Below the pieces are notes generated by a model. The model was not told the origin of the DNA. It ran no database searches and was given only the letters and a program-made list of their open reading frames with translations. Below, in pieces: positions 9,002-22,975 of a stretch of 64,000 nucleotides of DNA. Every line of letters begins with the position of its first letter. The stretch's first letter is position 1. The position numbers and the translations under genes are program-made. The stretch covers positions 177,842 to 241,841 of the forward strand of contig JAKLGA010000011.1 of NCBI GenBank assembly GCA_022710975.1, given 5' to 3'. The stretch comes from Myxococcota bacterium. GTDB lineage: Bacteria; Myxococcota; B64-G9.

Positions 9002-10240
9002 TCACTCGAACGAGTAGCGGAAGCCGGGCTGGCCGAAGCGACCCTCGACGATGCCGAGCGTGTCCTCGGCGATGACCAGCTCCTCGTTGGTGGGGATGAC
9101 CAGCACCCGCACCCGGCTGCCCGGGGCGGCGATGTCGAGCTCGGCCTTGCCCCCGCGGGCGGCCTGGTTCTTCTCCTCGTCCAGGCGGACGCCCAGGAAG
9201 CCGAGCCCCTGCAGGGCGCGCGCGCGGATGAGCGCCGAGTTCTCGCCCACCCCGGCGGTGAACACGACCGCGTCCAGGCCGCCCATCACCGCCGCGTAGG
9301 CCCCGATCGTCTTCGACAGGGCGCGGCACTCGAGCTCGATCGCCAGGCGGCAGCCCTCGTCGCCCTGGGCGGCCGCGGCCTCGATGTCGCGCCGGTCGTT
9401 GAAGCGGCCGGTCAGCCCCAGCAACCCGCTCTGCTTGTTGAGCTGCTTGTCCATCTGCGCCACGCTGAGCTGCTCGCGCTCCATCACGTACAGCGGGATG
9501 GCCGGATCGATCGAGCCCGAGCGGGTGCCCATGACCAGCCCCTCCAGCGGGGTGAACCCCATGGAGGTGTCCACCGAGCGGCCGCCCAGGACCGCCGCGG
9601 CGCTGGCCCCGTTGCCGATGTGCAGGGTCACCAGCCTGAGCTCCGCCAGCGGCCGCCCGAGCACGACCGCCGCCCGGCGCGAGACGTACAGGTGGCTGGT
9701 GCCGTGGAAGCCGTAGCGGCGGATGCCGTGCCGCTCGTACCAGGCCAACGGCAGGGCGTACAGGTAGGCCGCGCGCGGCATGCTCTGGTGGAAGGCGGTG
9801 TCGAACACCGCCACCTGGGGCACGCCCGGCAGGAGCGCCTGGGCCGCCCGGATGCCCGCCAGGTTGGGCGGGTTGTGCAGCGGCGCCAGCACCGAGAGCT
9901 CCTCCAGCGTGCGCACCAGCTCGTCGGTGATGAGCGCCGACTGCGCGAAGCGCTCCCCGCCGTGCACGGCCCGGTGCCCGACCGCGCGGATGGCCCGGGG
10001 ATCCCGGGCCGGCGCGTCCTCGCCCTCGCCGAGCGCGCGCAGCACCAGGCGCACGGCCGCCACGTGGTCGGGGGCCGCCTCCTCGAGGCGCAGCTCGCGC
10101 TCGCCGCGCTTCTCCTTGAGGAAGGCGTCGGCGCTGCCCACGCGCTCGACCACGCCGCGCGCCAGGAACGCGCGCCGGGCGGGCTCGTAGACCGAGTACT
10201 TGACCGAGGACGAGCCGCAGTTGAGCGTGAGCACGCTCAT
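9002..10240 (-). CDS. ackA: Acetate kinase
   Basis: MSVLTLNCGSSSVKYSVY..., GHRAVHGG, FDTAFHQSMP, RRYGFHGTSH and VFTAGVGENS are canonical AckA motifs. The rest of track ORF 9002..12154 is out-of-frame overlap with the OPT gene. Confidence 0.95.
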   Translation of the reverse strand: MSVLTLNCGSSSVKYSVYEPARRAFLARGVVERVGSADAFLKEKRGERELRLEEAAPDHVAAVRLVLRALGEGEDAPARDPRAIRAVGHRAVHGGERFAQSALITDELVRTLEELSVLAPLHNPPNLAGIRAAQALLPGVPQVAVFDTAFHQSMPRAAYLYALPLAWYERHGIRRYGFHGTSHLYVSRRAAVVLGRPLAELRLVTLHIGNGASAAAVLGGRSVDTSMGFTPLEGLVMGTRSGSIDPAIPLYVMEREQLSVAQMDKQLNKQSGLLGLTGRFNDRRDIEAAAAQGDEGCRLAIELECRALSKTIGAYAAVMGGLDAVVFTAGVGENSALIRARALQGLGFLGVRLDEEKNQAARGGKAELDIAAPGSRVRVLVIPTNEELVIAEDTLGIVEGRFGQPGFRYSFE

Positions 10241-12540
10241 GGCTTGCCCTCCGGCGGGCCTGCGCCCGGCGGCGCGGCCGCGAGCTGCCAGCGCGCGCCC
10301 AGCCGGGCGAGCAGGAAGCAGACCAGCCCGAGCAGCACGAGCATGCCCAGGCCCAGCCCCTGGCCCAGGCCGCCCACGTACCAGGGGTGGCGGGGTTGCG
10401 GCTTGCCGTCCGCGCCGAGCACGGGCCTGCAGCTCGCGTCCTCGACGAACTCGAGCTCGCGCAGGTTCTCGTTGCACTCCTTGCCCGCGGGCAGCTGGAG
10501 CTCCTCGCAGGTGTGCTTGCCGCACTGGAACTTGGCGTCCACCACGGCCTCGACGGTGAAGTCCTTGCCCACGCTGAGGTGCTGGATGGGGGCGCCGATG
10601 GGCGCCAGCCTGAGCACGGCGCCCAGGATGCCGAAGATGGCCGCCCCGGCCATGAGCCCCGAGGCGATCAGCGTGCCCTGCTCGGCCCGGGCCGCGCGCA
10701 CCTCGGGGCGGCCGCCGGTCCTGGAAATGAGCCAGGCGCAGAAGGCGCCGGCCAGCACCGCCATGTTGATCGAGATGGGCAGGTACATGCCGAGCGCGAA
10801 GGCCAGCATGGGCACCCCGGCCATGAACAGCAGCACGGCCACGATGCCGCCCAGGCCGTACAGCAGCCAGGGCTGGCTGGCCGGGTCCGACATCAACCCC
10901 TTGGACACGGCCGCGATCATGTTGGCCTGGGGTGCAGGCAGCACGGCCTCGTTGGAGATCTTGAGCCCCTCGGGCGTGGTCACCAGGAAGTGGTAGGCGC
11001 TGTCCATGAGCGGGATGATGAAGGCGATCACCAGGGCCGCCACCGCCATGCCCAGGAACTTCCAGCGCTCCTGGTTGCGCGGGGTGGAGCCGATCCAGTA
11101 GCCGATCTTGAAGTCGGTGATGAGCGCCCCGGAGGTGGACAGCGCGGTGCACACCGCGGTGCCGATGATGAGCGCGATGATCAGCCCGGCGTTGCCCTTC
11201 AGGCCCGTCAGCAGCATGGCGCCGATGCTGAGCGCCACGGTGATGAGCGTCATGCCCGAGACCGGGTTGGTGCCCACGATGGCGATGGCCTGGGCCGCCA
11301 CCGGGGTGAACAGGAAGGACAGCAGGAACCCGACCACCATCCCGACCACGGCGAAGAGGAGCGCGTCCGAGGCCGGATAGGAGGCGCCGGTCGCGTCCAT
11401 GGGGGTGACCAGCGAGACCACCAGGAAGAGCACCCCCATCAGCAGCGCCAGCCCGAGCTGCAGCAGGAGCACCTTGCCCGGGGAAAGATCGCGCTGGGTG
11501 CGCTCGTCGACCGCCACCTCGCCCCGGCGGGAGAGCCCCTTGAAGCCGAGCGACACCGAGGAGGCCACGATCTTGCCCATGCGCAGGATGCCGATCAGCC
11601 CCGAGACGGCGATGGCGCCGATGCCGATGGGTTTCACGAAGGCGCTGAAGATGGCCCCCGCGCTCAGCTCGGAGATCTGGAAGCTCTTGCCGGCGAAGTC
11701 GAACTCGGCCAGGCCCTTGCCGAACAGGTACACCAGCGGCACCAGCACCAGCATCGACAGCACGCTGCCGGCCGCGATGATCGAGGCGTACTTGATCCCG
11801 ATGATGTAGCCCAGCCCGAACAGGGCGGCGATGCCGGCGAGCTGCACCTCGAGCCGCACCCCCCGCATGGCCTCGCCGATGCCCGCGGGCAGGAAGCTCG
11901 TGGAGAGCCCGGCGTTCCACAGGTTGAGCGTCTCCACAGAGAAGTCGAACAGCGCGCCCAGCCCGAAGGCGATGAGCAGGATCTTGCCCGCCCCGGCCGC
12001 GGCGCTCTCGCCGGTCACCAGGATCTCGTTGATGGCGGTGGCCTCGGGGAAGGGCAACTCGCCGTGCAGGTCCTTCACGAAGTACTTGCGCAGCGGGATG
12101 ATCAGCGCCACCCCCAGGCAGCCGCCGATGCCGGTCGCCAGGAAGATGTGCCACCAGGCCACGGGCTGCTCGTTGATGTACAGCGCCGGGATGACGAAGG
12201 TGGCCCCGGCCGCCACCACCCCGGCGGCCTGGCCCACGCTCTGCACCATCACGTTCTCCAGGATGGTCGAGCGGATCTTCTTCATCTTGCCGAAGAAGAT
12301 GGCCAGGATGGCGATGGGGATGGAGGCCTCGATGGCGTTGCCGGCCCGCAGCGCCATGTAGGCGCAGGCGCCGGTGAAGACCACCACCATGATCAGCCCC
12401 AGGCCGATCGACCAGGGGGTGACCTCGGCCCGCCCGTCCCCGGCCGGGACGATGGGCTGGTAGGTCTCGCCGGGCTGGAGCCGGGTGTAGGCGTTCGCGG
12501 GCAGCAGTTTCGAGCCTGGGCTGGGGCTGGGTGAGTGCAT
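10237..12540 (-). CDS. OPT-family oligopeptide transporter
   Basis: A 767-aa polytopic protein with ...AGNAIEASIPIAILA..., ELPFPEATAINEILVTGE and other OPT-superfamily signatures. AGGAGG lies 9 nt before the ATG at 12540. Its stop overlaps the ackA start by 4 nt. Confidence 0.9.
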   Translation of the reverse strand: MHSPSPSPGSKLLPANAYTRLQPGETYQPIVPAGDGRAEVTPWSIGLGLIMVVVFTGACAYMALRAGNAIEASIPIAILAIFFGKMKKIRSTILENVMVQSVGQAAGVVAAGATFVIPALYINEQPVAWWHIFLATGIGGCLGVALIIPLRKYFVKDLHGELPFPEATAINEILVTGESAAAGAGKILLIAFGLGALFDFSVETLNLWNAGLSTSFLPAGIGEAMRGVRLEVQLAGIAALFGLGYIIGIKYASIIAAGSVLSMLVLVPLVYLFGKGLAEFDFAGKSFQISELSAGAIFSAFVKPIGIGAIAVSGLIGILRMGKIVASSVSLGFKGLSRRGEVAVDERTQRDLSPGKVLLLQLGLALLMGVLFLVVSLVTPMDATGASYPASDALLFAVVGMVVGFLLSFLFTPVAAQAIAIVGTNPVSGMTLITVALSIGAMLLTGLKGNAGLIIALIIGTAVCTALSTSGALITDFKIGYWIGSTPRNQERWKFLGMAVAALVIAFIIPLMDSAYHFLVTTPEGLKISNEAVLPAPQANMIAAVSKGLMSDPASQPWLLYGLGGIVAVLLFMAGVPMLAFALGMYLPISINMAVLAGAFCAWLISRTGGRPEVRAARAEQGTLIASGLMAGAAIFGILGAVLRLAPIGAPIQHLSVGKDFTVEAVVDAKFQCGKHTCEELQLPAGKECNENLRELEFVEDASCRPVLGADGKPQPRHPWYVGGLGQGLGLGMLVLLGLVCFLLARLGARWQLAAAPPGAGPPEGKP

Positions 12541-12666
12541 CGCGCCACGTCCTCCTGCTGGATTCTCCCGCGGTTTCGCCATAGCACAGGGGGCGGCCGG
12601 AAGCTACCCAAACGCGCGGCGCTGTGTCAGGATGGGGCCCTGGGCGGGATCGAAGGAGAGCGAACC

Positions 12667-15600
12667 ATGCGGCAGAGTCTCGTGCGCCTGGAGGTGCTCC
12701 TGGTGTTGTGCGGCCCCCTGGCCCTGGCGGGGAGCGGCTGCGGGGACGGGGCGAGCTGCCCGGCCGGGCAGGCGGCCTGCGGCGGGACGTGCGTGGACGT
12801 GTTCTCGGACCGCGACAACTGCGGCTTCTGCGGCTGGGCCTGCCTGGACGGCCAGTTCTGCGTCACCGGCCAGTGCATGCCCTGCCAGCACCAGTGCATG
12901 CTGGGCCAGAAACAGTGCGCCCCGGGCTCCAGCCTCGAGTTCCAGGTGTGCGGCGACAGCAACGGCGACACCTGCCTGGACTGGACCCCGGCCCAGGTCT
13001 GCCCGAACGGCCAGATCTGCGAGGACGGCGACTGCCAGACGGGCTGCCTGGACGACTGCAGCCGCGAGGGCTCGACCACCTGCGACTCGAGCGGCGCCAA
13101 CGGGGTGCTGAGCTGCGGGGAGTTCGACGGGGACCCCTGCCTGGAGTGGGGCGGGTTCGCCGCCTGCGTGGGGGCCGAGACCTGCTCGGCCGGGCTGTGC
13201 TCCACCACCTGCCAGGACGAGTGCGCCAGCGGCAAGACCCAGTGCGCCACGCCCGCCTCGGCCGGGGTGCAGACCTGCGGCCAGCACGACGCGGACGCCT
13301 GCCTGGACTGGGGCCAGGCCGAGGCCTGCCAGCCGGGCCAGAGCTGCGTGGACGGCGCCTGCACCGGGGGCTGCAGCGACGAGTGCGCGGGAGACCAGGT
13401 GCGCTGCGCCGATCCGCCGCTGAACGCCGTGCTGACCTGCGGCAACTGGGACGCGGACGCCTGCCTGGAGTACGGCGGCGCCCAGGCCTGCACCGCGCCC
13501 GCCACCTGCTCCGGCGGGGTGTGCTCGACCAGCTGCCAGGACGACTGCGACGTGGGCGAGCGGGAGTGCGAGGGCACCGCCTGGAAGCAGTGCGGCTACT
13601 ACGACGGCGACGCCTGCCGGGACTGGTCCGGGCTGACCGCCTGCGGCCCGCAGCAGACCTGCGTGAGCGGCCAGTGCCAGGCGACCTGCGCGAACGAGTG
13701 CCCGAGCGCGGGCGACCGGCAGTGCTCGGGCTCCGGGGCCACGCTCGGCACCGACCAGTGCGCCGACTGGGACGGGGACGGCTGCCTGGAGTGGGGCGGG
13801 CACACCAACTGCCCCGCGGGCTACCGCTGCGAGAACGCCGAGTGCGTGGAGGACTGCACCGACGACTGCGACACCCCGGGCGAGCAGACCTGCGAGGGCG
13901 CGGGCTACAAGGTGTGCGGCGACTCCGACGCGGACGACTGCCTGGACTGGAGCGGGATCACCGCCTGCGGGGCCGGCGAGACCTGCTCGGCCGGCGTGTG
14001 CTCCGCCACCTGCGCGGACGAGTGCGCCAGCGGCCAGCGCGAGTGCTTCGGCACGGGCTGGCGCGAGTGCGGCGAGGCCAACGACGGGGACGCCTGCCGC
14101 GACTGGCTGGCGGTGCACCCGTGCGCCGCCTGGGAGGCCTGCCCGGCCGCGAGCCCCTCCTGCGTGGTGACCTGCAGCAACGACTGCCCCACCCAGGGCG
14201 CGGCCGGCTGCACGCCCGATCTGACCGGCACGCGCACCTGCATCGCCAACGGGGACGCCGATCCCTGCCTGGAGTGGAGCGGTGCCACAGCCTGCGGCGC
14301 GGGCCGGGTGTGCGATCCGGCCACCAGCCAGTGCGTGCTGGCCTGCTCCGACGAGTGTGACACGCCGAACGAGCGGCGCTGCACCGGCGATGGCCTGGGC
14401 TACGAGACCTGCGCGACCAACGTGGACGGGGACGCCTGCCTGGAGTGGGGCTTCCCCACGAGCTGCCCCGCGCCCCAGACCTGCTCGGGCGCCGGGGTGT
14501 GCTCGCTCAACTGCACGGACGACTGCTCCCCGAGCGGCGCCCTGGTGTGCGACGCGGCCGACCCCAGCCACAAGGCCTACCGGCTGTGCGGCAGCTACGA
14601 CGGGGACGCCTGCCTGGACCTCGGCAGCCCGGGCTCGTGCGGCTATGGCCAGCAGTGCCTCGCCGGGGCCTGCAGCGTGGTGTGCGCGGACGGCTGCGCC
14701 ACGCCCGGGGAGGTGCGCTGCGGCGGCAACGCGGTCGAGGTGTGCGCCGCCAACCACGACGCGGACGAGTGCCTGGAGTGGGGCACCCAGACCGCCTGCC
14801 TGGCAGGGGAGCTGTGCTGGCGCGGGGGCTGCGTGAGCCAGACGCCGCCGGCCACGCTGCTGATCAACGAGATCCTGTACGACGACGCGAGCACGGACGG
14901 GGAGCAGGTGTTCATCGAGCTGTGGGGCCCGGGCGGGTTGTCGCTGTCCGGCTACTACCTGCTGGCGGTGAACGGGTCCGGGGGCGCCGAGATCAGCCGC
15001 ATCTACCTCGACGGCCGGCAGCTCCCGGCCGACGGACACTTCGTGATCGCCACCGCGAGCGCGGACGCGGCCCTGGCGCCCGAGGTGGACATGGTCAGCT
15101 CCTACGCCGATCTGCAGAACGGGCCGGACAACCTGCAGGTCGTGTGGGCCGGCGGCCAGGTGGTGGACGCGCTCGGCTACGGGGCCTTCACCGTGAGCAA
15201 CGTGTTCGCCGGCGAGGGCGCGGACTACACCCAGGCGGCCGGCAACGCGGGCTACGACGCGACCTGGGGCACCTTCTGCCTGAGCCGCTCGGCCGATCAT
15301 GCCGACAGCGGGGTGAACCTGAACGACTTCTTCCTGCGCACGGCCTGCTCGCCGGGCTGGGAGGGTCCGGGCAAGGTGCTGTGGCAGCTCGCCGCCTACG
15401 GCGGCACGTCCTCCCCGGCCCTGGACGCCGGGGGCAACATCTACACCGTGGACTCCTGGGGCGATCTGTACAAGGCCAGCCCGGACGGCGTCCGCGTGTA
15501 CAACCCCCTCTTCAGCTTCCTCAGCTCGGTGGCGCTGTCGAACGACGAGACCACCCTGTACGTCGGCTCGGACACCGGCGTCTACGCCCTGAGCGCCTCG

Positions 15601-16545
15601 ACCGGCATCACCATCGGCGGCTGGCCCGTGGAGACCGGGCAGGACGTGTACTCCACCCCGGCGGTCGGGGCGGACGGGTCCATCTACTTCGGCAGCCGCG
15701 CGGGCGGGCTGTACTCCTACAGCGCCGCGGGCGCGCTGCGCTGGCGCTACGGCCCGGCGGGCTGCGCCGCGGGGAGCTGCCCGGCCCTCGACTCCTCCCC
15801 GGCGGTGGCCCCGGGCTGGGGGCCGGGCGGGGCGGACCTGGTGGTGGTGGCCATCGGCGGCGTGGGCCACGGCGAGCTGGCCGCGGTGAACGGCTCGACC
15901 GGGGCCGAGGTGTGGCGCTGGACCCAGGGCACCGAGGCCTGCCTGAGCTCGCCGGCCATCGGGCCGGACGGGACCATCTACTTCGCCTGCGACGACGGCT
16001 TCCTGGACGCCCTGGATCCCGCCACGGGCACCTCGCGCGCCGGCTTCCCCGTGGACATCGCTCCCGACGCCACCTCCGTGTTCGAGGTCAAGGGCTGCTC
16101 GGCCAGCGTGCTGCTCCCGTCCTACGGCGGGGTGGAGATCTACGCCACCTCGCGGGCGGACGCGTCCAACGCCTTCATCTTCGGCGCGGACGGCAGCGAG
16201 CTGTGGCGGGCGACCCTGTTCGAGGGCAACTCCAGCTTCAGCCTGGCCGCCAACGGCGCCTTCCACGTGCACTCCGTCGACAGCGCCGGGGGCACCGGGT
16301 ACCTGCTCGGCTACAGCGCGGCCGGCACGCTGGAGTGGTACACGGTCCTGGAGGAGAGCGCGGTGGACTGGATCTCCTCCTCCCCGGCCATCAGCCCCGC
16401 CGGGGTGGTGTACGTGGTGGCCCACAACGGCGCTTCGAGCTCGGGCTACCTGTACGCGGTCCAGGGCGTCGCGGGCCTGAACACCGAGCCGGGCGGGTTC
16501 CCCCGCTTCCACGGCAACGCCCGCAACGCGGGCCGTGGCTACTAG
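12667..16545 (+). CDS. Giant surface/secreted lipoprotein: Cys-rich repeats, lamin-tail domain (LTD) and PQQ-like beta-propeller (1292 aa)
   Basis: AAGGAGAG lies before the ATG, and ...LALAGSGC is a lipobox. It has twelve six-Cys repeats and an LTD signature (LLINEILYD...QVFIELWG...YYLL). The C-terminal half has repeated ...G.IY.GS.DG.LYA... blades like BamB/PQQ propellers. Confidence 0.9.
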   Translation: MRQSLVRLEVLLVLCGPLALAGSGCGDGASCPAGQAACGGTCVDVFSDRDNCGFCGWACLDGQFCVTGQCMPCQHQCMLGQKQCAPGSSLEFQVCGDSNGDTCLDWTPAQVCPNGQICEDGDCQTGCLDDCSREGSTTCDSSGANGVLSCGEFDGDPCLEWGGFAACVGAETCSAGLCSTTCQDECASGKTQCATPASAGVQTCGQHDADACLDWGQAEACQPGQSCVDGACTGGCSDECAGDQVRCADPPLNAVLTCGNWDADACLEYGGAQACTAPATCSGGVCSTSCQDDCDVGERECEGTAWKQCGYYDGDACRDWSGLTACGPQQTCVSGQCQATCANECPSAGDRQCSGSGATLGTDQCADWDGDGCLEWGGHTNCPAGYRCENAECVEDCTDDCDTPGEQTCEGAGYKVCGDSDADDCLDWSGITACGAGETCSAGVCSATCADECASGQRECFGTGWRECGEANDGDACRDWLAVHPCAAWEACPAASPSCVVTCSNDCPTQGAAGCTPDLTGTRTCIANGDADPCLEWSGATACGAGRVCDPATSQCVLACSDECDTPNERRCTGDGLGYETCATNVDGDACLEWGFPTSCPAPQTCSGAGVCSLNCTDDCSPSGALVCDAADPSHKAYRLCGSYDGDACLDLGSPGSCGYGQQCLAGACSVVCADGCATPGEVRCGGNAVEVCAANHDADECLEWGTQTACLAGELCWRGGCVSQTPPATLLINEILYDDASTDGEQVFIELWGPGGLSLSGYYLLAVNGSGGAEISRIYLDGRQLPADGHFVIATASADAALAPEVDMVSSYADLQNGPDNLQVVWAGGQVVDALGYGAFTVSNVFAGEGADYTQAAGNAGYDATWGTFCLSRSADHADSGVNLNDFFLRTACSPGWEGPGKVLWQLAAYGGTSSPALDAGGNIYTVDSWGDLYKASPDGVRVYNPLFSFLSSVALSNDETTLYVGSDTGVYALSASTGITIGGWPVETGQDVYSTPAVGADGSIYFGSRAGGLYSYSAAGALRWRYGPAGCAAGSCPALDSSPAVAPGWGPGGADLVVVAIGGVGHGELAAVNGSTGAEVWRWTQGTEACLSSPAIGPDGTIYFACDDGFLDALDPATGTSRAGFPVDIAPDATSVFEVKGCSASVLLPSYGGVEIYATSRADASNAFIFGADGSELWRATLFEGNSSFSLAANGAFHVHSVDSAGGTGYLLGYSAAGTLEWYTVLEESAVDWISSSPAISPAGVVYVVAHNGASSSGYLYAVQGVAGLNTEPGGFPRFHGNARNAGRGY
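12883..14841 (+). repeat. Twelve tandem 51-57-aa six-cysteine coding repeats
   Basis: Consensus read by eye: C.(D/N)(E/D)C..G...C......(Q/V).CG..D.D.CL(D/E)W......C..G..C..G.C.... The repeats cover residues 73-725 of the CDS. Confidence 0.85.
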
Positions 16546-18289
16546 CCCCTCGCCACAGGCCGGCCCGGCCGGGGCCCGCGCCCCGCGCCTGCGGCTGCTG
16601 CTCGGCGCGCTCGCGGCGGCCGGGCTGGGCGCGCTGGCCCTGGTCTGGCAGGGCGGGGCGGCCTGGGCTGGCTTGCTCGGTCAGGCCGGCACGGCGCACG
16701 CGATCGAGCTGGCCGGCTTCCTGCTGGCGCTCGGCCTGCTGGTCGGGCCGGTGGCCTCCAGGCTGGCCGAGCGGCCGCTGCTCCCGTTGCTGGTGGGCCT
16801 CGGCCCCGTGGGCCTGGGGGCGCTGCTGGCCGCGCTGAGCGCGGGCAACCTGCCCGGGGTGGCCGATCTGAAGGGCCACTGCGATCTCCTGCTGGCGGTG
16901 GGCTGCGAGGCCGTGACGCTGTGGGCCCTGGGGCTGCTCGGCACGGCCGCGCTGTGGCTGGGCTCGCTCCCGGCCCTGCTGCCGCTCCTGCCGGCCGGGC
17001 CCGAGGGGCCGCTGCGGGGACGTGCGACCCTGGGGGCGGCGCTCGCCCTGTGGGCCGCGGCGGCGGCGGTGGCCTTCCTCGACGGGCTCATGCCCGAGCG
17101 GGGCGCCGTGGGCGGGGCCGCGGTGCGCGGGCTGTGGCCGCTGGCGCTGGGGCTGCCCGCCCTGGCGCTGGCCGCGCACGCGCTGCGCCGCGCGGGCGGG
17201 CCACGCCAGGCCGGGGCGGCGCTGGCCGTGGCCTGGGCCGCGCTCGGGGGGCTCCTGTGCCTGGCGCTGGCCGCCTGGCTGGGCGCCCGCGCCTGGGGCC
17301 TGGAGGTGATGGCCTTCGAGCTCGAGGGGCTGGGCGCGCTGCCGGCCTGGCCCGGGGACGCCCTGGAGGCCAGCCTGGTGGCCGCGACCGCGCTCGGCGG
17401 GCTGGGGCCGGCCCTGGCGCTGGCCCTGGCCTTCTCGGCCGGGCTGGCCGGCTGGCGCGCCTCACGCTCCGGGCGGCGCCAGGCGGTGGGCCTGCTGGGC
17501 GGATCGGCCACCGCCGCCCTGCTGGCGGCGGCGCTCCTGGTGGAGCAGGCGGGGGGCTTCGAGGAGCGCTGCCGGGGGCTGCGGGCCCCGGGCCTGGAGC
17601 TCGGCCTGGCCGGACCCGATCTGCCCTGGGCGGAGGAGGAGGCCCGGGTGCTGTGGCTCCTGCCGCAGGCCGTGGCGCTCGACGACCAGGTGCTCGACCC
17701 GCGCGCGCCGGTCCTGCCCGGGCCCGGCCAGCCGGGCGCGCGCCTGCTCGTGGCCGTCGATCGCGCAGCCCGGGCGGGCCGGCTGCTCGACGCGCTGGCG
17801 GCGGCCGGGCGGGCCGGCTGGCGGCGCTTCGGGCTGCTGCTGCAGCCGGCGCCGCCCGACGAGGCGCGCTGCGCCCTCGAGCGGCGGGCCTTCGGGCTGT
17901 GCCTGTCCGCGCGGGTGGAGGGGCTGCGCGCCCTGACGTTCGCCGGCCCCGGGCCGGGGGCGAACCCCGCGCCCGGCGCCCTGCTCGCCAGCGTGCTCCT
18001 GGGGGCCGAGGAGCTCGAGCTCACCTTCGGCGGCTTCGGGCCGGGCACCGCGCCCGCGGAGCTCGCGCCGCTCGGCGCCCGGGTGCCGCGCTCCGGGCCG
18101 GACGGCGGCCGCGCCCGTCTGGCCGAGGCGCTCGGGGCGGCCCGGGCCGCGTTCCCGGACAGCCGCGTGGCGGAGATCGTGGTGGAGGATCGGGAGCTCG
18201 CGCTGGCGGAGCTGCTGCTCTGGCTCGAGGCCGTGCGGGGCGAGGGGGCGCGCTTCCCCGAGCTCGTGCTGGGCGGCTCGACGCGCTGA
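16535..18289 (+). CDS. Polytopic membrane protein of unknown function (584 aa)
   Basis: The GTG start overlaps the upstream stop by 11 nt. The first ~330 aa have about 8-10 Leu/Ala/Gly-rich hydrophobic segments, followed by a soluble ~250-aa C-terminal part. No family was recognised, and the start is uncertain. Confidence 0.6.
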   Translation: MATSPSPQAGPAGARAPRLRLLLGALAAAGLGALALVWQGGAAWAGLLGQAGTAHAIELAGFLLALGLLVGPVASRLAERPLLPLLVGLGPVGLGALLAALSAGNLPGVADLKGHCDLLLAVGCEAVTLWALGLLGTAALWLGSLPALLPLLPAGPEGPLRGRATLGAALALWAAAAAVAFLDGLMPERGAVGGAAVRGLWPLALGLPALALAAHALRRAGGPRQAGAALAVAWAALGGLLCLALAAWLGARAWGLEVMAFELEGLGALPAWPGDALEASLVAATALGGLGPALALALAFSAGLAGWRASRSGRRQAVGLLGGSATAALLAAALLVEQAGGFEERCRGLRAPGLELGLAGPDLPWAEEEARVLWLLPQAVALDDQVLDPRAPVLPGPGQPGARLLVAVDRAARAGRLLDALAAAGRAGWRRFGLLLQPAPPDEARCALERRAFGLCLSARVEGLRALTFAGPGPGANPAPGALLASVLLGAEELELTFGGFGPGTAPAELAPLGARVPRSGPDGGRARLAEALGAARAAFPDSRVAEIVVEDRELALAELLLWLEAVRGEGARFPELVLGGSTR

Positions 18290-18335
18290 GCTCCCACGGA
18301 GTACAATGCCGCCGGACTGGGGAGGCGGGTGGAGC

Positions 18336-19190
18336 ATGGTGGCCCCGAAGATTCCGCGCGTGACCCGGGTCAACTCCGGCCGGGAGACCCTGCGCTTCCT
18401 GGTCGTGGACGACGAGGACGTGGTGCGCGGCGTGGTGCGCTCGGCGCTGGAGCGTCCGGGCGTCTTCCTGGTCGAGGCGGCGGACGGCGAGGAGGCCATC
18501 CGGCTGCTGCTGGCCGAGCACTTCGATCTCATCCTGGTGGACAAGAACCTGCCTGGCATCACCGGGCTGGACGTGATCCGCCGGGCCCGGGCGGTGCACC
18601 CCAGGATCGGCACCCTGCTCATCACCGGCTTCGCCTCGCGCGAGTCCGCCGAGGAGGCGCTGGTGCTGGGGGTGGACGCGTACCTGGTCAAACCCTTCGA
18701 CATCGCCGAGCTCCAGGAGAGGGTGGACGAGACCCTCGGGCGCCGCTCGACGCCCGTGGAGGCCCCGCCGCCCAGGGTCGGGCTGCGGATCAGCCGGAGG
18801 CGGGTGCTGGTGTGCGATCCCTCCCCGGCCTCGGCCGAGATCCTGCGGGTCGGGGTGGAGATGCTCGGGCACCAGGCCGAGCTGACCATGGACATGTCGC
18901 GGGTGATCCAGGCCATCCGCGACAAGCGCCTGGACACCCTGGTGTGCGACCTGGAGCTGATCAGCCGCAACGAGGCCAGCGCCTGCTTCCTGCGCTCGGC
19001 GCTGTGGACCGCGCCCCAGGTCGGCTTCGTGGCCGTGGCCGCCCAGCGCGGCCTGGACGGCGCCATCCAGGCCATCCAGCGCGGCGCCACCCAGGTCGTC
19101 TACCGCCCGCTGGGCACGGCCTCGGACGTGGCCCGCAACCTCGAGCCGTTCCTCGGGAGGGCCGCCCCCAACCCGCGTGGCCGCGTGTGA
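18336..19190 (+). CDS. Dual-receiver response regulator (REC + degenerate REC, no output domain)
   Basis: REC1 has LRFLVVDDEDV, DLILVDKNLPGITG and AYLVKPF. The second REC-like half (RRVLVCDPSP...LDTLVCDLEL...VVYRPL) has the conserved Lys replaced by Arg and only one N-terminal acidic residue. GGAGG lies before the ATG at 18336. Confidence 0.85.
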   Translation: MVAPKIPRVTRVNSGRETLRFLVVDDEDVVRGVVRSALERPGVFLVEAADGEEAIRLLLAEHFDLILVDKNLPGITGLDVIRRARAVHPRIGTLLITGFASRESAEEALVLGVDAYLVKPFDIAELQERVDETLGRRSTPVEAPPPRVGLRISRRRVLVCDPSPASAEILRVGVEMLGHQAELTMDMSRVIQAIRDKRLDTLVCDLELISRNEASACFLRSALWTAPQVGFVAVAAQRGLDGAIQAIQRGATQVVYRPLGTASDVARNLEPFLGRAAPNPRGRV

Positions 19191-19230
19191 GTCCGGGCGC
19201 GGCGGGGTGGGCCGGTCGCGGAGGTGTCTC

Positions 19231-19614
19231 ATGCCCGGTTCGTGGAAGAAGGTCTGGGAGGTCCGCTCCTACCCCGAGGCGATCCAGCGCATGTTGCTCG
19301 CGCTGCCGGCGGTGTACGACGGGGCGGCCGAGAAGGGCATGCTGGGCTGGGTGGGCCGCACCTTCGCCCACCAGCGCAAGGACGTGCGCCCCAAGGCCCC
19401 CCGCCTGATGGCCCAGCGCGAGGATCGGCTGGTGTTCCAGCACGACCTGGTCACCCCCTTCACCTACAGCGTGGATCTGCAGGCCGTCGAGGACCTCACC
19501 CGGGTGACGCTGGAGGTGCGCACCACCGAGCTGGTCAAGGACACCAGCCCCGCCGATCAGGTCACGCTGATCGCCTTCGCGCTCAGCAAGGCCCTCGAGC
19601 CCCCCGCCGACTGA
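19231..19614 (+). CDS. Hypothetical protein (127 aa)
   Basis: GAGG lies 6 nt before the ATG at 19231. The composition is non-repetitive and protein-like (MPGSWKKVWEVRSYPEAIQRMLL...). No family was recognised. Confidence 0.6.
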   Translation: MPGSWKKVWEVRSYPEAIQRMLLALPAVYDGAAEKGMLGWVGRTFAHQRKDVRPKAPRLMAQREDRLVFQHDLVTPFTYSVDLQAVEDLTRVTLEVRTTELVKDTSPADQVTLIAFALSKALEPPAD

Positions 19615-19623
19615 CCCGCCGGC

Positions 19624-20700
19624 CTAGCGCGACGGCTGCGCGTGCCGGGCCTGCGCGCCCGCGTGCAGCTCGGCGAAGATGGCGTCGAGGTCGTGGCGCT
19701 GGCGCCAGGCGGGGTAGTGGCGCTCGAACTTGGACACGTCGCTCACCCACCAGCGGTGGTCGCCCTTGCGCGGGCGCGGGTCCTCGCGCAGCGACATGGG
19801 CCGACCGGTCAGCGCCTCGCAGCGCGCGATGGCCTCGCGCACGGAGCAGCTGCGCTCCCGGCCCCCGCCCAGGTTGTACACCTCGCCGGGGCGCGGCGCG
19901 GCCTGGAAGCACTCGAAGGCCGCCGCCAGATCGGCGGCGTGGATGTTGTCCCGCACCTGCTTGCCCTGGTGCCCGTAGATGGTGTAGCCCGCCCCGCCCA
20001 CGGCGCAGCGCATCAGGTAGGCCAGGAAGCCGTGCTGCTCGGCGCCCGCGTGGGCCGCGCCCGTGATGCACCCGCAGCGGAAGCAGCCGGTCTTCAGGCC
20101 GAAGTAGCGCCCGTACTCCTGGACGTAGGCGTCCGCGGCCAGCTTCGAGCAGCCGAACAGGCTGTGCAGGCATTGATCCACGCGCATGCTCTCGTCGATA
20201 CCGCGCGCTGCCCAGGCGTGGGAAGGGTCGAGCTCCAGGCGGGTGGCCCGCTCCACCAGGGGCAGGTGGTTGGGCGTGTCCCCGTAGACCTTGTTGGTCG
20301 AGACGAAGACGAACACCGCCTCCGGGCAGCGCCGACGGCAGAGCTCCAGCAGGCCGAGGGTCCCCCGGGCGTTGATGTCGAAGTCCTCCAGGGGCGCCGT
20401 GGCCGCCCAGTCGTGCGAGGGCTGCGCCGCGGCGTGCACCACGAGCTCGAAGGGCTCGGCCTGGCCGGCGAACAGCGCCTCCAGCCCGGCCGCGTCCCGG
20501 AGATCCAGCGCGTGGTGGGTGTACCCTGGTAGCTCGGCCTGGAGCGCCGCGCGCGTCCCGGCGGTCGAGGCCTCCGGCCCGAAGAACCGCCGGCGCTGAT
20601 CGTTGTCGAGGCCGCTCACCCGCCAGCCGCGGGCCGCGAAGTGACGCACCGCGGCCGAGCCCACCAGACCCGCCGCTCCGGTGACCAGCATGCTCGGCAT
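19624..20700 (-). CDS. NAD-dependent epimerase/dehydratase (SDR; CDP-paratose-2-epimerase-like)
   Basis: MLVTGAAGLVGSA is a Rossmann GxxGxxG motif, and ...STNKVYGD... with YGCSKLAAD-like (LFGCSKLAAD) gives the catalytic YxxxK context. Length is 358 aa. Confidence 0.9.
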   Translation of the reverse strand: MPSMLVTGAAGLVGSAAVRHFAARGWRVSGLDNDQRRRFFGPEASTAGTRAALQAELPGYTHHALDLRDAAGLEALFAGQAEPFELVVHAAAQPSHDWAATAPLEDFDINARGTLGLLELCRRRCPEAVFVFVSTNKVYGDTPNHLPLVERATRLELDPSHAWAARGIDESMRVDQCLHSLFGCSKLAADAYVQEYGRYFGLKTGCFRCGCITGAAHAGAEQHGFLAYLMRCAVGGAGYTIYGHQGKQVRDNIHAADLAAAFECFQAAPRPGEVYNLGGGRERSCSVREAIARCEALTGRPMSLREDPRPRKGDHRWWVSDVSKFERHYPAWRQRHDLDAIFAELHAGAQARHAQPSR

Positions 20701-20704
20701 GGCT

Positions 20705-22975
20705 TCACCCGTCCTGGCGCGCGAACTCGCGCGCGAGTTCGAAGAGGACGTTGTAGATGTCCAGGTGCTCCCGGGCGAAGGCCACGCCGCGCTCGGCGAG
20801 CGCGTCGATCTCCGCGCCCCCGCGCAGCACGCGCTCGAGCTGGTCGAAGAGATCCGTCCCCGAGTCCGGGTCGTAGAGCACCAGCGGCGCGTCCTCGGCG
20901 AGGATGCGCTCGGCGCCCGGGTGGCGGCAGGTGACCAGCGGCAGGCCGGACGCCAGGGCGTCGTTCACCGACAGCAGCACGTTGCGGGTGGTGGACTTCA
21001 ACGGCAGCAGGACGCAGCGGGACAGGGCCAGCAGCCGGGCGTACACCCGCTCGTCCACCCGGGGCGCGATGAACACGTCGTTCCGCCGGGCCAGCTCGCC
21101 CAGGCTCGAGACCGGGTTCGCGCCCTGCATGAGCAGGATCTTCCTGCCCGCGAGCCGGTCGGAGTCGAGGGCCGCGAAGTCCCGCCCGGCGTAGCCCAGC
21201 AGCGCGATGTCGAACAGCTTGGCCTGGCTGCGGTAGAAGCTGGCGTAGTCGAAACCGATGGGGATGTAGTTGAACCAGCGCCGCTCGAGGAACTGCCGCG
21301 GGAAGTAGTGCTCGATGTCGCTGAGGATCTTCGCCTCCGGCTGGCAGGAGCGCAGGGCGATCGAGTTGTGGAAGCGGAGCTCCGGCCACAGGCTGACCCT
21401 GTGCGAGAGGGCCCGGCTGTCCAGCTCGAGCAGCTGGTGGAAGAAGGCCAGGTCCAGGCACACCAGCGCGCTGCGCAGGCCCTCCACGGACATGGCGTGC
21501 GCCATGGCCTGGCTGGGTCCGACGAACAGGATCCGGTCGAAGACGTTGAGCCGGGCTGCGTCCCAGGTCAGCAGCTCATCCACGGGCAGATCCTCGAGCC
21601 CCTTGGCCACGACGCCCTGGTGGAACTCGTGGATGTCGAAGTAGCTCGCGCAGGTGACCCGCAGGCCGGGCTGGAGTCGCTGGAGCGCGCCGAAGAAGTC
21701 GGTGATCGAGGGGTAGAACTGCTGGCCCTTGATGGCGTTCACCAGCAGGAGCCTCCGGCCCGCGGGGAAGCACAGCGCCGCGAGCTGCTCGTCCCGGGCC
21801 GCTCGCCGTCGGGGCAGCCAGTCTCGGTGGACCCCGGGCAGCCGCAGGCCGGCGATCCGGGTGAGGAACTGCTCCTTGCGGCCGGAGGGCGCGTCCACCT
21901 GCCCGCCGAGGCGGGGCGCGCTCTCCGGCGCCAGCATGCGCCCCAGGTTGGTGACCAGGTCCATGTTCTGGCGCGCGAACTCGGCGGCGTTCCGCTCGAG
22001 GCGTTCTCGCAGGGCGCCGTCGCTCAGGAGCCGGAGGATCGCCGCGCGGAGCGGCAGCGCCTCACCCGGAGGCACCAGCAGGCCGGTCAGGCCGTCCTGG
22101 ATGTAGCCCTGGGTGGAGCGGCACTCGGTGGTGAGGATCGCCTTGCCCAGCGCCAGGGCGTGCGCCAGGTAGGACAGGCCGCAGGAGACGTGCTTCTCCT
22201 GCACCAGCGGCAGGAGCACGAACTTCGCCGCGGCGGTCTCCTCGATGAACTCGAGGTAGTCGAGATCACCCAGCACCTCGACGCCCCGCTCCGCGAGGAA
22301 CTGGAGCGGGCGGGGGTCGATGGCCCGCACGCGGATGGGCACGTAGATGTCGCGGGTGGCCTCGTGCAGCAGGGGGTAGTCCCGCATGCGGCTGCCCGCC
22401 ATGTGGGCGAAGGGCAGCGGGGCCGGTCGCACCTGGTACAGCGGACGGTAGAAGCTGTAGTGACAGAAGGCCAGCATCGAGGCGGGGATGCCGTAGTTCC
22501 TGTACAGGTACTCGAAGCCCGGGAAGATGTGGAACACCTTGAGCCGCGGGGCGCGCTCGAGCAGCAGGGCCGCGAGGTCCTGCGGCCCGAGCCCGGCCCG
22601 CTCCACGAAGGCCTGCATGCCGTTGAGGATGTGGATGTCGTACAGCACGTGCGGCAGGTCCCGGTGCCGCTCGAGCAGGCTGGAGAAGAACAGCTCGCTG
22701 GTCTCGATGAAGCACAGCTGCTCGGTCCGCTGCGCGGCCCGGACCTGGTCCAGCGCAGCGGACAGCTCCGGCACGCTGCCGACGTAGGTGAGCTGATTTT
22801 CGCCCTGGAGACAGTGGCCGACCCGCGCGAGGGTGGTGCGCAGGTCACCCTGGGGATCTCGCACCAGCACGCGCGGAGCGAGCCTGCCCTGCCGGCCGAG
22901 CTCGCCGATGGCGCAGATGAAGTTCAGCGCGAACTCCACCTGCGGGTTCTCGATGACGAACAGGGCGCGCTTCAT
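20705..22975 (-). CDS. Large two-module glycosyltransferase (GT-B / GT4-like halves, 756 aa)
   Basis: Both halves end in GT4-type motifs: ...SYLAHALALGKAILTTECRSTQGYIQDGLTGLLVPPGE... and ...SVNDALASGLPLVTCRHPGAERILAEDAPLVLYDP.... The stop lies 4 nt upstream of the epimerase start. Confidence 0.8.
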   Translation of the reverse strand: MKRALFVIENPQVEFALNFICAIGELGRQGRLAPRVLVRDPQGDLRTTLARVGHCLQGENQLTYVGSVPELSAALDQVRAAQRTEQLCFIETSELFFSSLLERHRDLPHVLYDIHILNGMQAFVERAGLGPQDLAALLLERAPRLKVFHIFPGFEYLYRNYGIPASMLAFCHYSFYRPLYQVRPAPLPFAHMAGSRMRDYPLLHEATRDIYVPIRVRAIDPRPLQFLAERGVEVLGDLDYLEFIEETAAAKFVLLPLVQEKHVSCGLSYLAHALALGKAILTTECRSTQGYIQDGLTGLLVPPGEALPLRAAILRLLSDGALRERLERNAAEFARQNMDLVTNLGRMLAPESAPRLGGQVDAPSGRKEQFLTRIAGLRLPGVHRDWLPRRRAARDEQLAALCFPAGRRLLLVNAIKGQQFYPSITDFFGALQRLQPGLRVTCASYFDIHEFHQGVVAKGLEDLPVDELLTWDAARLNVFDRILFVGPSQAMAHAMSVEGLRSALVCLDLAFFHQLLELDSRALSHRVSLWPELRFHNSIALRSCQPEAKILSDIEHYFPRQFLERRWFNYIPIGFDYASFYRSQAKLFDIALLGYAGRDFAALDSDRLAGRKILLMQGANPVSSLGELARRNDVFIAPRVDERVYARLLALSRCVLLPLKSTTRNVLLSVNDALASGLPLVTCRHPGAERILAEDAPLVLYDPDSGTDLFDQLERVLRGGAEIDALAERGVAFAREHLDIYNVLFELAREFARQDG

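Follow-up and report, generated by a model that had tools for sequence, protein, structure and literature searches.

The question raised by this locus is whether four neighboring genes on one strand make up a single device or fall into separate units. The genes occupy positions 12667–19614 of the stretch of DNA analyzed here (the window, 64,000 nucleotides of contig JAKLGA010000011.1 from a Myxococcota bacterium). Gene A (12667–16545, + strand) encodes a 1292-residue lipoprotein, gene B (16535–18289, +) a 584-residue polytopic membrane protein, gene C (18336–19190, +) an orphan response regulator with two receiver domains, and gene D (19231–19614, +) a protein of 127 residues. The GC content of the stretch is 73%, and that of the third codon position (GC3) is near 0.97; long spurious open reading frames (ORFs) are therefore numerous. 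Genes A–D were picked by codon-position GC, and GC3 values of 0.95–0.97 (0.97 for gene A and 0.95 for gene D) fit these frames. A first-pass annotation, made from the sequence alone, had placed four same-strand genes at the same coordinates, which agrees with the codon-position GC, and had read them as a device on the cell surface that senses or adheres and is coupled to a phosphorelay. With only modest confidence, we judge it probable that the locus instead holds two units, namely an envelope gene pair, A–B, and an independently transcribed C–D.

A boundary between the two proposed units is seen in the relatives. Gene B always lies directly 3' of gene A on the same strand, with a spacing of −11 to +80 nt, in the genomes of 11 relatives with readable context and in two metagenome contigs. 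The region downstream of gene B, however, is rearranged. Variable genes of 1.2–7.5 kb intervene between genes B and C in five genomes (G002, G007, G009, G011, and G015); those identified encode a 1650-residue Cys-rich protein with Dicty_CTDC, CARDB, and matrixin domains, a GGDEF protein, and a spermine-synthase-like membrane protein. In G003, gene C directly follows gene A with no gene B between them. Gene D is found on the opposite strand to gene C in three genomes (L011, L013, and L014), behind the genes for lysine-ketoglutarate reductase and saccharopine dehydrogenase (LKR/SDH); in L013, it is the third gene and is convergent with gene C. The compact A–B–C–D order is kept by the closest lineages: the window, a contig with an 82%-identical gene B, and L116, whose gene B is approximately 50% identical. 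The flanking ackA–OPT and LKR/SDH genes are equally well conserved. Because these unrelated neighbors are equally conserved, the synteny reflects descent rather than function. The linkage of the regulator to the A–B pair, as claimed by the first-pass annotation, thus dissolves with the intervening genes, the direct succession of A and C in G003, and the inversion of gene D.

The transcription evidence is consistent with this division. The only sigma-70-like site in 12300–19800, where 0.0 are expected from shuffled sequences, is a promoter candidate (TCGACG-18-TACAAT, 18278–18307, +) located between the gene B stop and the gene C start. The gene C ATG at 18336 lies behind a GGAGG motif, and the promoter candidate places the start there; an alternative upstream ATG at 18306 falls inside the −10 element of the candidate. 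Counted from ATG 18336, the gap between genes B and C is 46 nt, as previously annotated. Exact-match RNA contigs from three activated-sludge metatranscriptomes cover the OPT transporter gene, gene A (up to 16518), gene C (from 18326), and gene D, and two of the contigs (19142–19636 and 19126–19611) bridge the spacer between genes C and D. Gene D is co-transcribed with gene C in this organism. No RNA contig was found over gene B, the A/B or B/C junctions, the epimerase gene downstream of gene D, or most of the glycosyltransferase (GT4) gene beyond it, and none of the RNA runs queried with gene B alone holds this gene. An apparent RNA joint over gene B was disregarded, as it consisted only of 20-nt chance matches of foreign contigs. 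The uneven coverage argues against carry-over of DNA. A single operon is not supported by these data: gene C is preceded by its own promoter-like site, the RNA contigs start at 18326 and bridge C and D, and none joins A to B or B to C.

Within the envelope pair, gene A is the conserved core and gene B is a dispensable accessory, not an obligate partner, since gene B is truncated or lost in lineages in which gene A is intact. Gene A is present in 15 of the 18 family genomes (13 open frames of 1184–1398 residues and two matches cut by contig ends), and the transmembrane module of gene B in 12 of the 18. The gene B proteins form a reduction series. Nothing is missing from the long form of approximately 520–600 residues (G000, G002, G009, G010, and G011), which is well conserved, with E values down to 1e-213 against the profile. 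The short form of approximately 390 residues (G007, G015, G012, and G016) lacks the ExbD-like domains described below and keeps three Cys of the tail, while the very short, internally deleted form of approximately 270–315 residues (G006, G014, and G017) also lacks the D183–W201 loop. No gene B was detected after gene A in G001, G013, and G003; in G001 and G013, gene A is followed by genes for a secreted protein of approximately 190 residues and a Cys-rich protein of approximately 1700 residues.

The stop codon of gene A (TAG) and the start codon of gene B (GTG) overlap by 11 nt (16535–16545, +). This overlap, reported in the first-pass annotation, is read directly from the sequence, and it recurs in the 82%-identical relative; elsewhere, a gap of 14–80 nt separates the two genes. 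The stoichiometric co-production that the overlap had suggested is not borne out, because the overlap is limited to the window and its closest relative and gene B is lost or truncated while gene A remains intact. In a wider set of 80 OPT loci, drawn from Myxococcota, Acidobacteriota, and Planctomycetota, both genes are absent beside 76. The other four loci carry gene A and belong to metagenome-assembled genomes of Myxococcota (labelled Myxococcales, Deltaproteobacteria, or Myxococcota), two of which are contigs of the family genomes already examined. Anaerobic digesters, activated sludge, and sediments are the sources of the DNA runs in which the stretch itself was found, and the genomes and metagenome records examined include no cultured member of the family.

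The gene A product is a predicted bacterial lipoprotein and substrate of signal peptidase II. Its signal peptide ends in a lipobox, in which CGPLALAGSG precedes C25. A PROSITE PS51257-type lipobox pattern, with Cys25 invariant, matches 11 of the 12 orthologs. The protein contains 113 Cys residues, 106 of which are located before residue 723. Residues ~25–722 comprise an N-terminal Cys-rich segment followed by approximately 12 repeats of about 54 residues, each with eight Cys in the arrangement C-x3-C-x3-C-x6-8-C-x7-12-C-x7-8-C-x8-C-x5-C. The repeat Cys are almost all invariant among the 12 orthologs, which share 45–80% identity, and this invariance fits a disulfide-locked extracytoplasmic stalk. 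Since a tandem-repeat finder detected no DNA-level tandem repeats in gene A, the Cys modules are old and diverged. The 54-residue module has no Pfam repeat match, and the stalk has no sequence match in the PDB.

Two further domains follow the stalk. Residues 725–839 match the Pfam LTD profile (PF00932) with 19.9 bits and an E value of 1e-3, which is below the gathering cut-off of 34.3 bits yet covers profile positions 2–108 of 109. The same profile matches six of the 12 orthologs at E ≤ 0.01 (best, 3e-6), and precomputed PF00932 matches are recorded for some relatives of gene A. A lamin-tail domain at this position is thus probable. Residues ~900–1292 correspond to a PQQ-like β-propeller, with a PQQ_2 (PF13360) score of 53.7 bits (E 3e-14), and all 12 orthologs match this profile. 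In the PDB, the propeller matches 3hxj and the designed 'Cake' propellers with E values of 1e-24 to 1e-79 and up to seven matched stretches. The first-pass annotation had proposed a lamin-tail domain fused to a PQQ-like propeller behind a long Cys-rich stalk. The lipoprotein, the stalk, and the propeller of that description stand, while the lamin-tail domain scores below threshold in this protein and is helped by the six orthologs; the PQQ_2 score exceeds the gathering cut-off of 27.6 bits. Collectively, these features support an exported, disulfide-rich lipoprotein with a putative binding-type head composed of the lamin-tail domain and the propeller. RNA contigs map on gene A without mismatches.

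The closest counterparts of gene A are the PQQ-like propeller surface proteins (PF13360/PF13570), represented by 3hxj from Methanococcus maripaludis, the template of the 'Cake' designs, to which the C-terminal ~400 residues of gene A match strongly. In these proteins, as in gene A, the propeller is usually the head of a large exported multidomain protein; it is paired with Ig, PKD, FN3, or β-helix domains instead of the Cys modules and lamin-tail domain of gene A. BamB is likewise a lipoprotein with a PQQ-like propeller, and the Pfam model that matches gene A is named after it. However, BamB consists of the propeller only and has approximately 390 residues, whereas gene A encodes 1292 residues with about 900 residues of stalk and lamin-tail domain in front. 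An assignment of gene A as BamB was rejected, with 35.6 bits against the TIGR03300 cut-off of 285 and 32.7 against the NF008351 cut-off of 423. The N-terminus resembles the MXAN_6577-like (NF041328) and Dicty_CTDC Cys-rich proteins weakly (E 1e-6, 28.7 bits), far under the 100-bit cut-off of NF041328. Roughly a dozen clusters at 90% identity, and no more, show the full architecture, comprising the lipobox, twelve 8-Cys modules, lamin-tail domain, and propeller, and the 13 intact open frames of the family match it in length; the other clusters matched by gene A share the propeller alone or the lamin-tail domain alone. A literature search found no description of this architecture. As a propeller-headed surface protein, gene A belongs to a very common class, within which its architecture is new.

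Judged from its sequence and its homologs, gene B encodes a genuine protein of an undescribed, very small orphan family. This assessment is based on conserved open frames that follow gene A in genomes of 54–73% GC, on the 17 clusters recovered by a profile search among 1.84 billion representatives (11 of them at E < 1e-30), and on a confident AlphaFold2 model from a 17-sequence alignment, with a predicted local distance difference test score (pLDDT) of 86.2 and a predicted template modeling score of 0.82. An earlier model built from five sequences had an unreliable transmembrane part (pLDDT 52), and Foldseek returned nothing for it. In a word-based homolog search, low-complexity Ala/Leu/Gly words dominated and only five matches emerged, and a search with conserved patterns from one gene B alignment gave 600 pattern matches and no relatives. 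The composition of the gene is extreme, with 82–83% GC, an AT skew down to −0.48 (16500–18300), and a protein that is 58% Ala, Leu, and Gly. A minus-strand ORF at 16681–18306 was considered as the real gene in place of gene B and rejected. The two frames share the third codon position; the minus-strand frame needs an implausible GC of 0.88 at the second codon position, whereas the + frame shows 0.88 at the first and 0.61 at the second. The + frame is favored by the homologs and exhibits the strong excess of T over A expected for a membrane protein.

Hydropathy and the AlphaFold2 model indicate nine transmembrane helices (TM1–TM9; residues ~16–345), followed by a soluble part of approximately 245 residues, in agreement with the 8–10 hydrophobic helices and ~250-residue C-terminal part noted before. 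This tail folds into two α/β domains in the model (residues ~350–445 and ~465–584). The Arg-rich loops predict an N-in/C-out topology under the positive-inside rule, by our own reading rather than by predictor output. Pro81, Pro91, Cys116, Gly133, Gly143, Asp183, Pro187, Trp201, and Cys346 are invariant, and Gly193, Gly194, Cys446, Arg451, and Cys456 are nearly so. The loop motif FLDPLxP...VGGxAVRGLW and Cys116, Cys346, Cys446, and Cys456 are located on the predicted periplasmic side. The gene B protein of the window has no Pfam or NCBIfam match. A Foldseek search of the model against the PDB gave nothing significant; the best match (E 0.06) was to uS11-like α/β folds and involved only a small α/β domain, and the transmembrane module has no fold match.

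The last helix and the tail of gene B are predicted to be homologous to ExbD/TolR, with the periplasmic domain duplicated. In one family member (P0013), the ExbD profile PF02472 scores 27.8 bits over profile positions 36–126, directly after the last transmembrane helix, against a cut-off of 25.4 bits. In total, four of the 17 family members match ExbD; the gene B protein of the window itself has no PF02472 match. Comparison of the family alignment with 12 ExbD proteins of the same genome by hhalign gave a probability of 91% for TM9 with the first domain and 69% for the second domain. Conversely, each of the 18 family genomes has small ExbD ORFs that the gene B profile detects, among them the best canonical ExbD of this genome. 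The alignment extends across the helix, an 'LxLP' motif, and the periplasmic domain. The predicted C-out topology agrees with this homology, since the tail of ExbD/TolR also resides in the periplasm.

The differences from ExbD/TolR are nevertheless substantial. Gene B has eight additional transmembrane helices and a duplicated domain, and the short forms of the family have the domains deleted. TM9 (VGLLGGSATAALLAAALLV) contains no Asp, and no ExbB/TolQ-type gene (PF01618, MotA_ExbB) exists in the neighborhood, where genes A and C form the flanks; neither a TonB nor a TolA gene is beside it. Gene B is therefore not expected to act as an energized motor of the Ton/Tol type, because it lacks both the adjoining ExbB/TolQ gene and the Asp in TM9. 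A fusion of ExbB and ExbD was rejected, as there was neither a MotA_ExbB signal nor a fold match. A thiol oxidase of the DsbB, VKOR, DsbD, or CcdA type was likewise discarded in view of the missing CXXC motif, the lack of a Pfam match to such proteins in the 17 members, and the lack of a fold match. Elsewhere in the genome, on contigs C1, C7, C23, C25, C26, and C29, 13 canonical ExbD/TolR paralogs score above the Pfam cut-off, and several are arranged as tandem pairs.

Gene C matches Pfam Response_reg (PF00072) with 108 bits in two stretches and has no output domain, so the two receivers without an output domain described by the first-pass annotation are confirmed by the domain search. The first receiver is canonical, with an acidic pair (VVDDED), the Asp in LILVDKNLPG, the Thr in LLITGF, and the Lys in YLVKPF. 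The second receiver is degenerate: VCDPS offers a single acidic residue, with Asp-Pro in place of the acidic pair, Ala replaces Thr/Ser, and Arg replaces Lys (VVYRPL). Only the first receiver aligns to the CheY and Spo0F structures. The orthologs of gene C are 47–53% identical, and the same Lys-to-Arg substitution recurs in the ortholog of G003. One RNA contig (run X6) differs from the window at three positions within 19009–19012, in the second receiver, where it reads T for C; the probable cause is variation between strains of the sludge population, not editing. FrzZ of the M. xanthus Frz pathway also combines two receivers without an output domain, but both of its receivers are phosphorylatable and its gene resides in a che-type cluster. 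The designation of gene C as FrzZ-like does not hold in this respect, as the conserved Lys, Thr/Ser, and second acidic residue are all missing from the second receiver, and neither che nor kinase genes lie within ~8 kb. PleD shares the combination of a canonical first and a degenerate second receiver; it carries a GGDEF output, whereas gene C has none. A gene for a GGDEF-domain protein is found near gene C in two relatives (L013, 10309–11364; L011, 10740–11711) and is divergently adjacent in G009. This neighborhood recalls a split PleD-type arrangement of receiver, adaptor receiver, and GGDEF domain, although no such gene adjoins gene C here. Orphan response regulators abound in Myxococcota, and domain searches detected no histidine kinase gene within ~8 kb on either side of the four-gene block, consistent with the absence of a kinase from the cluster noted before. 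Gene D has no match in Pfam, NCBIfam, or the PDB; its ortholog in L116 shows a faint, sub-threshold resemblance to AHSA1/SRPBCC (E 0.0066).

The four-gene block is bounded on the 5' side by the divergent OPT transporter gene (10237–12582, −) and on the 3' side by a convergent NAD-epimerase gene (19624–20700, −). The epimerase gene and a gene for a 755-residue GT4 glycosyltransferase (together 19624–22975, −) separate gene D from the saccharopine-pathway genes. In L116, gene D directly abuts SDH/LKR; since the epimerase and GT4 genes are missing at this position there, 19624–22975 is a local insertion. The spacer between genes B and C in L116 is 117 nt long and contains a direct repeat of GTCCCCGGGGCGGGTCT (9620–9670). 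This repeat could fold into GC-rich hairpins, perhaps serving as a terminator or attenuator between the two genes. In several relatives, gene A or the A–B pair is followed by genes for a secreted protein of ~190 residues and a Cys-rich protein of 1630–1710 residues (L013, 11427–16978; L014, 11406–16295; L102, 5683–11339; L099, 8282–8863). The copy of this giant Cys-rich neighbor in G009 contains Dicty_CTDC and CARDB domains and a C-terminal matrixin domain. The 198-residue secreted protein that follows gene B in relatives was not found in the genome studied here, in which the 1650-residue neighbor was not searched for; the 198-residue gene is probably absent rather than moved. Giant Cys-rich exported proteins may have been more numerous in the ancestral cluster.

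Considering these results, we propose a model in which genes A and B form an envelope gene pair confined to a single family of uncultured Myxococcota. The gene A protein would be exported by the Sec pathway, lipidated, and equipped with a stalk of approximately 650 residues, whose twelve 8-Cys modules would hold roughly 50 disulfides. Its head would combine a non-enzymatic β-sandwich of the lamin-tail type with the PQQ-like propeller, and the protein may be tethered to the outer membrane, where it would act in adhesion or ligand binding. The gene B protein would be an accessory inner-membrane protein whose conserved features face the periplasm, with its Cys-stapled loops turned toward the gene A protein or the cell wall. 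Its ExbD/TolR-like domains may make contact with peptidoglycan or with the periplasmic portion of the gene A protein and thereby help to position or stabilize it. The Tol-Pal system, a loose functional analogy only, similarly places a TolR-type inner-membrane protein beside an envelope propeller protein and a lipoprotein. The likeness ends there: gene A is homologous to neither TolB nor Pal, TolQ and TolA are absent, and the A–B pair is dispensable and restricted to one family. Genes C and D would form the second unit, an orphan regulator with a receiver and a pseudo-receiver plus a small protein, transcribed from their own promoter and neighbors of the pair by descent.

Several observations weigh against this two-unit model. 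The contact between the A and B proteins and the location of the A protein are both features that we infer, and the Foldseek search of the gene B model listed no ExbD or TolR structure. The pair is confined to one family, so its adjacency could be inherited synteny, as for the OPT and LKR/SDH genes. The RNA contigs leave a gap over gene B (16518 to 18326); it may come from low expression or from suppression of Illumina coverage by the 82% GC, and because of these possibilities it indicates neither an absence of transcription nor an operon structure. In addition, gene C lies downstream of gene A on the same strand in every relative that shows it (seven genomes and two metagenome contigs), and a functional tie between gene C and the pair may exist. 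The last point bears on the model of the first-pass annotation, in which genes A–D form one sensing device, the A protein senses, B transmits, C relays, and the kinase is encoded elsewhere. We consider this model improbable, even though the window and the two closest lineages have the four genes closely spaced on a single strand and gene C follows gene A immediately in G003. That same genome retains A and C in the absence of B, the presumed transmitter. The variable genes between B and C in five genomes, the inversion of gene D in three, and the equal conservation of the unrelated housekeeping neighbors argue against a common function, as do the promoter-like site of gene C and the RNA contig that starts downstream of it. 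The B protein contains no recognizable cytoplasmic signaling domain, and its cytoplasmic loops are short; the second receiver of gene C is degenerate, and the nearest ~8 kb are free of kinase genes. A surface device wired to a phosphorelay is thus not supported, given the variable genes that separate B from C and the promoter and RNA evidence for C–D.

The remaining alternatives concern the relationship between genes A and B. The two may be unrelated neighbors, with gene B decaying and retained only through vertical inheritance of the block. The stepwise reduction and loss of gene B beside an intact gene A is what such decay would produce; the block also keeps the unrelated ackA–OPT and LKR/SDH genes, gene B has no RNA evidence, and the start/stop overlap is not conserved. 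On the other hand, gene B is found only directly after gene A, at −11 to +80 nt, although the region downstream is rearranged, and its conserved features face the compartment that receives the exported A protein. The conservation of the long form and its confidently predicted fold further argue for selection in the lineages that have it. This explanation therefore appears rather unlikely, and it is a stronger contender than the single device. Another possibility is that gene B serves the biogenesis of the A protein, as a thiol-disulfide or export and assembly helper for a stalk with ~50 disulfides. The tight spacing of the two genes, the 106 invariant stalk Cys of the partner, and the preservation of the four periplasm-facing Cys (Cys116, Cys346, Cys446, and Cys456) even in short forms of ~360 residues are compatible with this role. 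However, the B protein has no CXXC motif, no similarity to DsbB, VKOR, DsbD, CcdA, or any Pfam family, and no fold match, and gene A keeps every Cys in genomes that have no gene B, which implies that the general Dsb machinery is enough. We regard such a role as very improbable. Likewise very improbable is a more far-reaching reading, in which gene B represents a new inner-membrane protein class, composed of an eight-helix module and duplicated ExbD/TolR domains. With the A protein, it would form a passive, motor-less trans-envelope tether, akin to Tol-Pal, from the inner membrane or peptidoglycan to a binding head exposed on the surface, and this tether could also convey mechanical or ligand signals to the protein of gene C without a classical kinase. 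We retain the two-unit model with the modest confidence stated at the outset.

The locus offers a caution, in that same-strand neighbors conserved within one family can be mistaken for an operon-level device; here, the link to the regulator dissolves once distant relatives and RNA are taken into account. Giant Cys-rich surface proteins that await explanation are plentiful in the phylum Myxococcota, and gene A provides a clean example of a long, invariant, putatively disulfide-locked stalk carrying a probable lamin-tail domain and a propeller as its head, expressed in wastewater communities. Gene B represents an undescribed family whose eight-helix module has no relative in the PDB, which makes it a target for structural and envelope studies on Myxococcota. 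If its predicted homology is correct, gene B would show that ExbD/TolR-type domains can be recruited outside the Ton, Tol, and Agl motors.

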